Shown here: piece after piece, positions 11,133 to 28,694 of the stretch
Numbering within the stretch: position 1 is the first letter of the stretch
Layout: each line of letters opens with the position of its first letter
Origin: Candidatus Aenigmatarchaeota archaeon
Lineage (GTDB): Archaea; Aenigmatarchaeota; Aenigmatarchaeia; CG10238-14; SCSR01
Reading direction: 5' to 3'
Assembly: GCA_018920185.1 (NCBI GenBank)
Contig: JAHLMT010000003.1
Location: forward strand, 2,055 to 66,054
Length of the DNA: 64,000 bases
Notes under the pieces: generated by a model
What the model saw: the letters and a program-made list of their open reading frames with translations, nothing else
Database searches by the model: none
Told to the model about the DNA's origin: nothing
Program-made: the position numbers and the translations under genes

Positions 11133-11873
11133 ATGAGAAAGGAACTCGTTGTTGCATCTAGTGTCATCGTGTTATTCTTCATATTGCTAGCCATATCTTC
11201 ATCTATAAAAGAACCAGAAATAATTCCTACATCCGACAAACAAACTGCTTCACAACAATCTTTTGTGCCCAATACAGTTATGATAAATCTTCCAGCTGTT
11301 GACAGTCAGGGGAATGGTGTTGTTGCTAAGTTAAAAGTACAGGCTATTTCGGGAGAAGGAAGGGTGCTAACAAACATAGATAATATTTTGTTTTGGGTTG
11401 ATACACAATATTCGATTAGAGTTGCAGAAACGGTGGCTAAAAACATAACTGGTGCTGATCTATCCAAGGTTGATTTGATATACACAATAGAAGCTGATGC
11501 GTCTGTAATTGAAGGTGGATCAGCAGGAGCTGCACTAACTATAGCAACAATAGCCGTGTTAAAGAACAAAACCCTACCTTCTGATGTGATGATTACTGGA
11601 ACTATTAACCCTGACGGTACTATCGGACCTGTTGGGGGTATATTTGCAAAAGCAAAAGCATCGAAAGATGTTGGTGCAAAGCTATTTCTAGTTCCCGAAG
11701 GTCAGGGTTCACAAATAAACTACATACCAGAGAGGACATGTGAACAAATAGGGCCCGTGACATTTTGTACGACAAAATACAAGCCTCAGAAATTGGATAT
11801 ATCCAAAGATATTGGAATAGAAGTTAAAGAAGTCTCGAATATTAATGATGCTTTAAAGTATTTTATTGACTAA
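11133..11873 (+). CDS. membrane-anchored Lon-like (S16) serine protease domain protein
   Basis: 246 aa with an N-terminal TM. GGSAGAALTIATIAVL and ITGTINPDGTIGPVGGIFAKAKA match the Lon proteolytic domain Ser-Lys dyad contexts. Confidence 0.7.
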   Translation: MRKELVVASSVIVLFFILLAISSSIKEPEIIPTSDKQTASQQSFVPNTVMINLPAVDSQGNGVVAKLKVQAISGEGRVLTNIDNILFWVDTQYSIRVAETVAKNITGADLSKVDLIYTIEADASVIEGGSAGAALTIATIAVLKNKTLPSDVMITGTINPDGTIGPVGGIFAKAKASKDVGAKLFLVPEGQGSQINYIPERTCEQIGPVTFCTTKYKPQKLDISKDIGIEVKEVSNINDALKYFID

Positions 11874-14397: not shown

Positions 14398-14479
14398 GGG
14401 TCTGTAGTCTAACGGTAAATTCGTTAAAGGACGGCGCTTTCACGTGGCGCAAATCACGGTTCAAATCCGTGCGGACCCA
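14398..14479 (+). tRNA. tRNA-Val (CAC) with enlarged 18-nt D-loop
   Basis: Acceptor GGGTCTG/CGGACCC, anticodon stem GCGCT/GGCGC, loop TTCACGT, T-arm CACGG-TTCAAAT-CCGTG, discriminator A, no encoded CCA. At 82 nt it is about 9 nt too long, and the excess lies in the D-loop. Confidence 0.7.
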
Positions 14480-22413: not shown

Positions 22414-22983
22414 TCAAGGCGTTAGCCGAGAAATTTCATAATATGTTACATCGTTCTCTCGATCGACTACAGCCCACCACATAGTCGCCCGAATATTATG
22501 TGCTAATCTCACCGCTCTAGATAATTCAGGTAAAGAAAATGCAGATTCTTCTGCAACAGCATGAACAACAGCTTTTGTGTGTTCATGTGGAGCTTTTGGA
22601 CCTCGTTTGAGCTTAACTCCACGTTCGTATAATCGAAAGTGTGCACCGAATTTATAACCGGTTTTGACTAAATAACCTCTTTCCCTCAAATCTCTAAAAA
22701 CTATGTATTGTGGGTGAAACTCGTTTACCCTTTCACTACCTATTTTCATCAACTCTTCAAAAGTTAGTTTTTTGCTTTTCCCCTCTTCTTTGACAATAAC
22801 TCTTAATTTTCCTTTTTCAACTAAATAAGCTGCCTCAACCAGATCTAATTCAAGCCTGTTAGGTTCTTCTTCTGGCAGTGGTTTACCGTAACCAGATTCG
22901 TCATAAAGAGTAATACTATCCTTATCCCAAATTATTACACGTTCTTCTATCAGTTCGCCTTCCCATATTTTTTCAATTGTCAT
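22414..22983 (-). CDS. endA: tRNA-splicing endonuclease
   Basis: 189 aa. The catalytic domain pattern YLVKTGYKFGAHFRLYERG....HEHTKAVVHAV is present. The size fits a single-subunit (alpha4-like) enzyme. Confidence 0.85.
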   Translation of the reverse strand: MTIEKIWEGELIEERVIIWDKDSITLYDESGYGKPLPEEEPNRLELDLVEAAYLVEKGKLRVIVKEEGKSKKLTFEELMKIGSERVNEFHPQYIVFRDLRERGYLVKTGYKFGAHFRLYERGVKLKRGPKAPHEHTKAVVHAVAEESAFSLPELSRAVRLAHNIRATMWWAVVDRENDVTYYEISRLTP

Positions 22984-23019: not shown

Positions 23020-23131
23020 TGGGACAGGAGAGATTTGAACTCTCGACACACCGATGAAGAAATTTGATTTTTCTCTTCAGGCGGTTGCTCTCCCGGGCTG
23101 AGCATACAGTAACCTCAGTTATTACTGTCCC
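23020..23131 (-). tRNA. tRNA-Phe (GAA) with two insertions (putative introns)
   Basis: On the minus strand: GGGACAG-TA-[19 nt]-GCTC-AGCCCGGGA-GAGC-A-ACCGC-CTGAAG-[19 nt]-A-TCGGT-GTGTC-GAGAG-TTCAAAT-CTCTC-CTGTCCC-A. It is 112 nt long, or 74 nt after removing 23104-23122 and 23056-23074. There is one C31:U39 mismatch. Confidence 0.65.
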
Positions 23132-23174
23132 AGCCGTCTGTCCCTTCATTAAAAATTTTATCTTTAATTTAAAT

Positions 23175-27911: not shown

Positions 27912-28544
27912 ATGAAGTTGAATAAATTTTCAAAAGTAATTTTTGTTTTGTCGATACTAAAAGGTATTTTTGTGGTGTCTTTAATTCTGTCTTTATTTTT
28001 ATGGAGTGTTCCTATACTTTCTTTTAATTCTGACATCTGGCTAATCTTTCAAGAAAGAAGTGGTGTGATTTTAGATTTTGAAAATGCCAGAAATTACAAC
28101 GAGTTGATAGTGGAATTTTTCAAAACTGGTTTGAATTTGGAGTTTCTTAATGAAAAAGAATTAAGCCACATGAAAGACGTCAAGACAGTTATAACAATAG
28201 CAAATGTTTTATTCATTTTTTCTTTTATTTCTTTAATTTCAGGATTTTCATACTTTTCAAAATCTCAGAGAAAATTTTTGTTAAAGGCTTTGAGAAAAAC
28301 ATCACTTTTCGTTTTTGTAATAACTCTGATTTTTTCTGTAATAATACTAACAAATTTCCATTCTTCATTTATGATATTTCACAAAATAATTTTTATCAGA
28401 AATTTTGTCTTTCCTGCAGATAGTTTGTTAAAGATACTTTATCCAGATGAATTTTTCTACGGATTAAGTGCACTTTATTTGTTGTCGGTGTTAATTGTTA
28501 GTTTTATAGTTGCTGTAATCTCACATAGATTAAAGCTTAAGTAA
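27912..28544 (+). CDS. integral membrane protein (possibly DUF1461/TIGR01906-like)
   Basis: The track ORF starts at 27867 on a non-ATG codon; the ATG at 27912 gives MKLNKFSKVIFVLSIL. It has four hydrophobic helices. EKELSHMKDVK resembles a motif I associate with that family; this is a weak call. Confidence 0.35.
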   Translation: MKLNKFSKVIFVLSILKGIFVVSLILSLFLWSVPILSFNSDIWLIFQERSGVILDFENARNYNELIVEFFKTGLNLEFLNEKELSHMKDVKTVITIANVLFIFSFISLISGFSYFSKSQRKFLLKALRKTSLFVFVITLIFSVIILTNFHSSFMIFHKIIFIRNFVFPADSLLKILYPDEFFYGLSALYLLSVLIVSFIVAVISHRLKLK

Positions 28545-28568
28545 GTTAATTTTTATTTTTAACAAAAG

Positions 28569-28694
28569 GGGGTTGTTGTCTAACCAGGTAGGACACTGTG
28601 TGGCCTAATAACAGGCTCCAGTATTTTATGGAGCATTGACAAAAAGATGATAAGAAGATACCTGTTGGTCAGGGTTCAAATCCCTGCAACCCCA
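28569..28694 (+). tRNA. tRNA-Trp (CCA) with two insertions (putative introns)
   Basis: GGGGTTG-TT-GTCT-AACCAGGTA-GGAC-A-[15 nt 28596-28610]-ACAGG-CTCCAG-[38 nt 28622-28659]-A-CCTGT-TGGT-CAGGG-TTCAAAT-CCCTG-CAACCCC-A. It is 126 nt long, or 73 nt after removal. Confidence 0.65.

Follow-up and report, generated by a model that had tools for sequence, protein, structure and literature searches.

The locus at positions 28569-28694 raises the question of how an archaeon with a reduced DPANN genome encodes its tRNA-Trp. Standard tRNA finders miss the gene at this site, so that an automatic annotation would report an organism without tRNA-Trp. The window, i.e. the whole stretch of DNA that was analyzed, comprises 64,000 nucleotides (contig C3:2055-66054) of a genome with a size of 643 kb (approximately 0.64 Mb), which has a GC content of 34% and is 92.5% complete in 8 contigs. 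Neither ARAGORN (with and without the -i option) nor Rfam at its gathering threshold detected the gene, and the E-value mode of Rfam returned only a partial match of 18.3 bits without the acceptor stem. The sequence analyses described below indicate that the locus is, with high probability, a functional and independently transcribed tRNA-Trp(CCA) gene that is interrupted by two endonuclease-type introns. Resolving this gene completes the decoding set of the genome.

A tRNA-Trp gene interrupted by two introns

The gene spans 126 nt on the plus strand (28569-28694) and reads GGGGTTG-TT-GTCT-AACCAGGTA-GGAC-A, then CTGTGTGGCCTAATA, ACAGG-CTCCAG, 38 nt and A-CCTGT-TGGT-CAGGG-TTCAAAT-CCCTG-CAACCCC-A. 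Exon 1 (28569-28594, tRNA positions 1-25) contains the acceptor 5' strand GGGGTTG, U8 and the D arm GTCT-AACCAGGTA-GGAC. Exon 2 (28610-28621, positions 26-37) supplies A26, the 5' strand of the anticodon stem (ACAGG) and the loop nucleotides CUCCAG, while exon 3 (28660-28694, positions 38-73) continues with A38, CCUGU, the variable region UGGU, the T arm CAGGG-UUCAAAU-CCCUG, the acceptor 3' strand CAACCCC and the discriminator A. The exons are separated by the 15-nt intron 1 at the non-canonical position 25/26 (28595-28609), which was located by ARAGORN, threading, folding and comparison with a relative of the same genus (G003), and by the 38-nt intron 2 at the canonical position 37/38 (28622-28659), which was located by ARAGORN and threading.

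Removal of both segments allowed ARAGORN to call a 73-nt tRNA-Trp(CCA), in which the acceptor stem has seven pairs, the D stem 4 bp (one G.U) and the anticodon and T stems 5 bp each. When the 15 nt alone were removed, the intron mode of the program called a tRNA-Trp with a 38-nt intron, and no tRNA was called by ARAGORN on the form that retains the 15 nt. A threading script was employed that enumerates all bulge-helix-bulge (BHB)-like deletions and then scores the remaining cloverleaf. Its top solution contained the same two introns, with a score of 34.5 versus 32-33 for the uninterrupted tRNAs of the genome, and a single-intron solution for the gene was not obtained from the script. All stems of the resulting tRNA are perfect and the conserved nucleotides U8, A14, G18G19, U33 and those of the T-loop are present. 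The first-pass annotation had proposed that a 73-nt tRNA-Trp(CCA) emerges from the 126-nt gene only after the removal of two segments, one of them a 38-nt intron at 28622-28659 following position 37. ARAGORN and threading agree with this proposal, and the 38-nt intron was found identically in the intron mode and by threading. Neither the ARAGORN calls nor the 39 tRNA hits of Rfam in the 92.5%-complete genome include a second tRNA with a CCA anticodon, which leaves 28569-28694 as the only tRNA-Trp gene found.

Upstream of the gene, a conserved block (window 28528-28568; TTAAAGCTTAAGTAA-N-TT..ATTTTTATTTTTAAC) ends approximately 5 nt before the 5' end of the tRNA. The same block is found in G001, G002 and G004-G008 (L133, L018, L005, L014, L132, L037 and L131), and the upstream sequence of G003 differs from this genus block. 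This block probably represents the BRE/TATA promoter from which the tRNA-Trp gene is transcribed.

Intron 1 at the junction of D arm and anticodon stem

Intron 1 has the sequence A CTGTGTGG CCTA AT (28595-28609). As an A residue is located on both sides, the segment can equally be written as 28595-28609 or as 28596-28610 and the spliced product is the same. The register was taken from the BHB rule: on both strands, 4 nt of central helix are followed by a bulge of 3 nt, with the cut between its second and third nucleotides, which agrees with a published review (PMC4090602). In the precursor, the exon strand UAGG (28589-28592, tRNA nucleotides 20-23) pairs with the intron strand CCUA (28604-28607). 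All four pairs (4/4) are Watson-Crick pairs, and this helix is contained in the MFE structures of the precursor as a whole and of its local region. The 5' bulge A24 C25|A (28593-28595) is followed by an intron-internal mini-hairpin CU-GUGU-GG (28596-28603), and CCUA is followed by the 3' bulge AU|A26 (28608-28610). The structure thus comprises a central helix of 4 bp and, on both strands, a bulge of 3 nt, and its register reproduces the exon junction.

The inner helix consists of only 2 bp in this genome (C-G and U.G, around the GUGU loop) and no exon-exon outer helix is found at the 3' site, so that the motif (score 4,2,0) deviates from a strict hBHBh' structure. The short inner helix and the absent outer helix assign intron 1 to the relaxed BHB type, and relaxed motifs are described as accepted substrates of broad-specificity enzymes in PMC4090602 and PMC3488258. 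In the MFE structure of the whole precursor, the register differs slightly, with a 1x1 internal loop plus CAC/GUG in place of the bulge of 3 nt. At this site, random or shuffled 15-mers yield a 4/4 central helix together with two or more pairs of an outer helix in only 0.6-0.9% of trials.

Distribution and drift of intron 1 among relatives

The strongest evidence for intron 1 is provided by the comparison with relatives of the same order, from which 26 tRNA-Trp genes (20 plus six more) were recovered. The insert is exactly absent in eight other members of the genus (G001, G002 and G004-G009). In most of the order, GGAC-A directly adjoins the anticodon stem; altogether 21 other Trp genes lack an insert at the intron 1 site, and the mature exons are collinear among the genes without it. 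G003, which belongs to the same genus, contains a 19-nt insert of different sequence at the same site (A CGATGGATATCG CCTA AA). Its local MFE structure is composed of UAGG, the 3-nt bulge ACA, CGAU-GGAU-AUCG and then CCUA. Thus, the central helix is the same as in the genome studied here (G000), while the inner helix is swapped for a different helix of 4 bp (CGAU/AUCG). ARAGORN identified a tRNA-Trp in G003 after removal of both introns, and the mature tRNA-Trp sequences of G000 and G003 are identical at 66/73 positions, whereas the introns have diverged.

Exact presence or absence of an insert, combined with sequence drift under maintained pairing, is the pattern predicted for a spliced intron. 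As UAGG/CCUA and an intron hairpin are kept in G003, the BHB rule sets the splice sites at 25/26, and intron 1 is, on this comparative reading, a BHB-type tRNA intron that is best placed at 25/26. The first-pass annotation had recognized the second intron and its product correctly, but its register (28596-28610, at 26/27) gives way to 28595-28609, where the BHB fits. The CTGT/ACAG pairing that it had noted does exist as complementarity in the sequence. In the G003 orthologue, UAGG/CCUA is maintained but CTGT/ACAG is not, and the latter was therefore dropped as a functional pairing. Of the 10 members of the genus in which a Trp gene was found, only G000 and G003 contain the insert, and judged by this distribution intron 1 is probably a recent, lineage-restricted gain. 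Extra Trp introns at other sites were found in three lineages, with G023 and G014 carrying them in the D-arm region and G051 an insert of unrelated sequence at 26/27. The G000/G003 pair offers a clean natural case of an intron at a non-canonical position that was probably gained recently and that retains its BHB pairings despite sequence drift, which is useful for studying intron origin and the substrate range of loop-bearing alpha4 EndA enzymes.

These data also bear on other readings of the gene. It is very unlikely that the 15-nt segment remains unspliced and persists after maturation of the tRNA, forming an additional loop at the junction of D arm and anticodon stem. The 3' splice site of intron 1 without an outer helix and the short inner helix would be compatible with such a loop. 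However, the hinge of the L-shape is located at position 26, the unspliced form is accepted by no gene finder and 21 orthologues exactly lack the insert; moreover, an insert whose sequence drifts from G000 to G003 under preserved BHB pairings behaves as a removed intron and not as a functional part of the tRNA. Even less probable is a decaying pseudogene, with tRNA-Trp being produced from an unassembled copy that could have escaped a 92.5%-complete assembly of 8 contigs. The perfect stems and the conserved nucleotides speak against decay, as do the intron elements conserved with 22 orthologues, the promoter-like upstream block conserved in genus members, the same two-intron design in G003 and the failure to find a second Trp gene. 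The least likely reading assumes one intron only, with the hairpin GCCU-AAUAAC-AGGC (28603-28616) serving as the actual D arm and the D-arm-like segment upstream of it lying outside of the tRNA: Rfam in E-value mode does align model positions 6-65 in this way, but its 18.3 bits fall below the 29-bit threshold, the alignment includes no acceptor 5' strand, the D loop lacks G18G19, the stem shares nucleotides with the perfect anticodon stem ACAGG/CCUGU, the implied anticodon stem has a mismatch and no sensible anticodon loop, and the insert-free orthologues keep the upstream D arm. The two-intron tRNA-Trp gene is the reading followed below.

Predicted splicing fold of the canonical intron

The 3' site of intron 2 is set by the anticodon stem (a helix of 5-7 bp), the bulge AU|A38 and a CUCC/GAAG central helix. 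The intron strand GAAG (28654-28657) pairs with C32-C35 (CUCC) and is followed by the 3' bulge AU|A. This helix includes a conserved C34.A mismatch; 3/4 pairs are formed in 20/21 Trp genes scored and 2/4 pairs in G003. An inner helix is missing, which leaves the 5' splice site in an open loop. The folds of intron 1 and intron 2 are therefore comparable in that each has one fully framed bulge site and one relaxed site. The pairing of CTCCA with TGGAG, previously noted as the BHB of a canonical intron, exists as complementarity; the BHB role itself belongs to CUCC/GAAG close to the 3' site. Placement of the canonical intron at 36/37 or 38/39 resulted in worse central helices upon inspection of the sequence by hand. 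A division of intron 2 into two adjacent introns around UGGAG was dropped, as the BHB was not improved. The tRNA-Met of this genome (C1:156735-156855) likewise has a C34.A mismatch in its central helix (CUCA/UAAG).

A putative methylation guide within intron 2

Intron 2 contains elements that resemble those of a box C/D guide. The hexamer UGGAGC (28629-28634) is antisense to G31-A36. One nucleotide further downstream lies a D'-like box UUGA (28636-28639), and nucleotide 28631, the fifth upstream of this box, pairs with C34. A C'-like box AAGAUGA (28644-28650) can form a kink-loop core of tandem G.A/A.G plus U.U together with UUGA. The layout UGGAG-N2-NUGA-N5-7-RAUGA is invariant in 23/23 parsed Trp introns, which have lengths of 25-46 nt and begin with a variable spacer and end with a short tail; the flanking spacers are variable. 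At the sequence level, all 23 introns therefore contain a kink-turn box pair of NUGA and RAUGA, 5-7 nt apart, in which D' precedes C' as in the internal box pair of C/D RNAs. Terminal boxes were searched in the intron and exons, and neither RUGAUGA upstream of the antisense nor CUGA downstream was found, so that one box pair is present instead of two. The target nucleotide is located opposite the fifth nucleotide as in guide RNAs, and the duplex has only 6 bp and is shorter than in usual guides.

A genome-wide scan for a kink-loop accompanied by a 6-nt antisense whose target site is located 5-38 nt upstream yielded 10 hits, versus 4-8 in shuffled genomes. The kink-loop motif alone is not rarer in the genome than in shuffled sequence. 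Seven of the 10 hits are located in anticodon loops (Leu UAA, Arg UCU, Met CAU, Gln UUG, Leu CAA, Trp CCA and Lys UUU). These seven hits involve seven different antisenses, and nucleotide 34 is always opposite the fifth nucleotide upstream of D'. The six tRNAs besides Trp carry the candidate guide in a 37/38 intron and map to C1:~31600, C1:135322-135414, C1:156735-156855, C2:29558-29635, C2:17923-18042 (minus strand) and C5:27680-27849 (minus strand).

Before splicing, intron 2 would thus probably act as a self-aimed half box C/D guide, in which UGGAGC and the D'/C' kink-loop direct the 2'-O-methylation of C34. The C34.A mismatch leaves the wobble base unpaired in the splicing fold, yet it is paired in the guide fold. 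We lean, with modest confidence, towards a half-size C/D guide that operates on its own precursor, with the same device being present in seven tRNAs and kept across the order. If true, the guide role gives these introns a function and explains their retention in a 0.64-Mb genome. A possible, though clearly less probable, explanation is that the UGGAGC/anticodon pairing and UGA...GAUGA do not constitute a guide but serve as a mask of the anticodon or as a scaffold for folding or L7Ae binding, which would aid splicing or protect the precursor. Such a role would be in line with a single kink-loop, an antisense of 6 bp and the lack of terminal C and D boxes. It would also agree with the fact that C32-C35 are needed for the guide duplex as well as for the central helix of the BHB, which are therefore mutually exclusive. 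A scaffold or mask does not account for the fixed spacing by which the fifth nucleotide upstream of D' faces nucleotide 34 in seven tRNAs with seven antisenses. In addition, fibrillarin, Nop5 and L7Ae are encoded in the genome, and four of the seven candidate tRNAs (Leu CAA, Leu UAA, Met and Trp) are found among the wobble-methylation targets of Pyrococcus C/D sRNAs reported in PMC7994747, both of which favor the half-size guide.

Introns in other tRNA genes

A census of tRNA introns in the genome, which the first-pass annotation had suggested, covered 32 full-length tRNA candidates. At least 22 of these are interrupted and 10 are uninterrupted. Approximately 11 contain one intron, and non-canonical single introns are located in the D arm of tRNA-Val(CAC) and tRNA-Val(UAC), near 27/28 in tRNA-Ile(GAU) and tRNA-Cys, in the variable region of tRNA-His and in the T arm of tRNA-Gly(UCC). 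Two introns were found in at least 8 of the 32 tRNAs, among them Met, Lys UUU, Lys CUU, Gly CCC, Gly GCC, Trp and Phe. These numbers are lower bounds, as the threading script mishandles some tRNAs, namely type II tRNAs (Ser, Leu), the G003 canonical intron (central helix 2/4) and four genes with wrong Rfam boundaries.

The double interruption of tRNA-Phe had been described before and was reproduced, as ARAGORN identified a 75-nt tRNA-Phe(GAA) after the two segments had been removed. This gene (window 23030-23141, minus strand) is located directly upstream of endA and was called only without 23056-23074 and 23104-23122. The oversized D loop of tRNA-Val(CAC) (window 14398-14479, plus strand) is best explained by an 11-nt intron, AAATTCGTTAA, which follows gene position 19 and has a central helix and an outer helix of 4 bp each. 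Rfam also reported a c-di-GMP-I riboswitch match (window 11641-11699, plus strand; 35.8 versus 35 bits, E = 0.0026) approximately 500 nt downstream of the SRP RNA, which is probably spurious.

Splicing enzymes and proposed splicing pathway

The only tRNA-splicing endonuclease gene found is endA (22414-22983, minus strand; 189 aa), located 5.6 kb upstream of the tRNA-Trp gene. The protein consists of an N-terminal and a catalytic domain and is most similar to the alpha4 enzyme of M. jannaschii and the alpha unit of M. kandleri. Its closest relatives are MAG proteins labelled Candidatus Aenigmatarchaeota. The search for a second (beta) subunit with Pfam PF01974 returned one candidate only, and phmmer against ORFs of at least 50 aa returned none below E = 0.3. 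In comparison to M. jannaschii EndA, a six-residue insert (VKLKRGPKAP) is located just before the catalytic His. VKLKRGPKAP aligns gap-free with the K/R-rich loop of N. equitans EndA and with residues 240-247 of ARMAN-2 EndA, whose loop is described in PMC3488258. This loop is termed L3 by Kaneta et al. 2018 (PMC5829648), and L3-bearing alpha4 enzymes are reported there for several DPANN lineages, where they go along with a marked increase in disrupted tRNA genes. EndA thus appears to be an alpha4-like enzyme with a basic L3-type loop, whose specificity would, going by PMC5829648, include relaxed motifs.

Residue 166 of EndA is an Ala where the canonical catalytic lysine would be expected (K156 of M. 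jannaschii; ...AHNIRAT... versus ...AHSVRKK...), while Tyr119 and His135 are kept. Ala occupies this position in 30/30 aligned Aenigmatarchaeota EndA orthologues (L040-L069). RAT is found in 28 of them and RAK, with a Lys one residue later, in the other two, and the basic loop GVKLKRGPKA is invariant. Long EndA homologues are encoded by G037, G040, G042, G043, G045, G048, G050 and G052, which belong to the same order (families f2, f5 and f7). Their open frames range from 246 to approximately 409 aa (7/8 with at least 363 aa), and G037, G050 and G052 also have the 190-aa type. The long homologues may be epsilon-like fused enzymes, in which case the architecture of the endonuclease would vary within the order.

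In the pathway that we infer from these sequences, the single EndA would cut each intron at a relaxed bulge-helix-bulge and the RtcB ligase, which is also encoded in the genome, would join the exons. For cleavage of intron 1, the precursor would have to pair U20-G23 of the D loop and D stem with CCUA of the intron; the 5' site would then lie within AC|A, a bulge of 3 nt that is flanked by a helix on either side, and the 3' site in AU|A, which would border on the central helix alone. In intron 2, the 3' site would be set by the anticodon stem, the bulge AU|A and CUCC/GAAG, with the 5' site in the open loop.

Comparison with known systems

Introns at 25/26, multi-intron genes, relaxed hBH/HBh' motifs and their link to the type of endonuclease are textbook knowledge for Crenarchaeota and Nanoarchaeota (PMC4090602), and according to PMC5829648, such disrupted tRNA genes extend to DPANN. 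The two-intron tRNA-Trp is an ordinary feature for such archaea, as multi-intron tRNAs and 25/26 introns have already been described. The surprise to a specialist is therefore small, and the mini-guide and an EndA without the canonical catalytic lysine are the parts worth an experiment.

One example from Thermoproteales is tRNA-Pro(UGG) of Pyrobaculum islandicum, for which introns at 25/26, 37/38 and 56/57 are on record (Sugahara 2007/2008, as reviewed in PMC4090602). The tRNA-Trp gene resembles these multi-intron tRNAs in the combination of a canonical intron with a short 25/26 intron, in the relaxed BHB and in its patchy, lineage-specific presence. In contrast to Thermoproteales, the organism is a DPANN member of the Aenigmatarchaeota with a mesophile-like GC content of 34%, a 0.64-Mb genome and an alpha4-like EndA instead of an (alpha-beta)2 enzyme. 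Another match is provided by the DPANN L3-loop alpha4 EndA and the ARMAN-2 epsilon2 EndA systems, as outlined in PMC5829648 and PMC3488258. As in these systems, a single-subunit-type EndA with a loop at the Nanoarchaeum/ARMAN-2 position coincides with many non-canonical and multiple introns. Unlike the EndA enzymes depicted in these sources, the EndA family found here carries Ala instead of the canonical catalytic Lys. The survey of Kaneta et al. gives counts per genome, and the Trp 25/26 intron and its G003 counterpart do not appear in the portions of PMC5829648 available to us.

The putative guide has its closest counterpart in the euryarchaeal pre-tRNA-Trp intron (Haloferax volcanii; Pyrococcus sR50), which is reported to be a box C/D guide for Cm34 and Um39 (Clouet-d'Orval 2001; PMC7994747, PMC11408192). 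Both share the tRNA, the intron position, an anticodon antisense with the C34 register and a kink-turn box pair. In comparison with the euryarchaeal guide as portrayed in these sources, the introns analyzed here are reduced to 25-46 nt with the D'/C' pair only and one 6-nt antisense, they contain neither terminal C and D boxes nor a U39 guide, and the device is also found in six other tRNAs. A 66-nt intron with a stable C/D-like RNA is reported for the elongator tRNA-Met of Nanoarchaeum equitans (Randau 2012, PMC3491384). This intron is longer and interrupts another tRNA, and the passages of PMC3491384 on it state no wobble target; like intron 2, it is a DPANN tRNA intron with box C/D-like elements.
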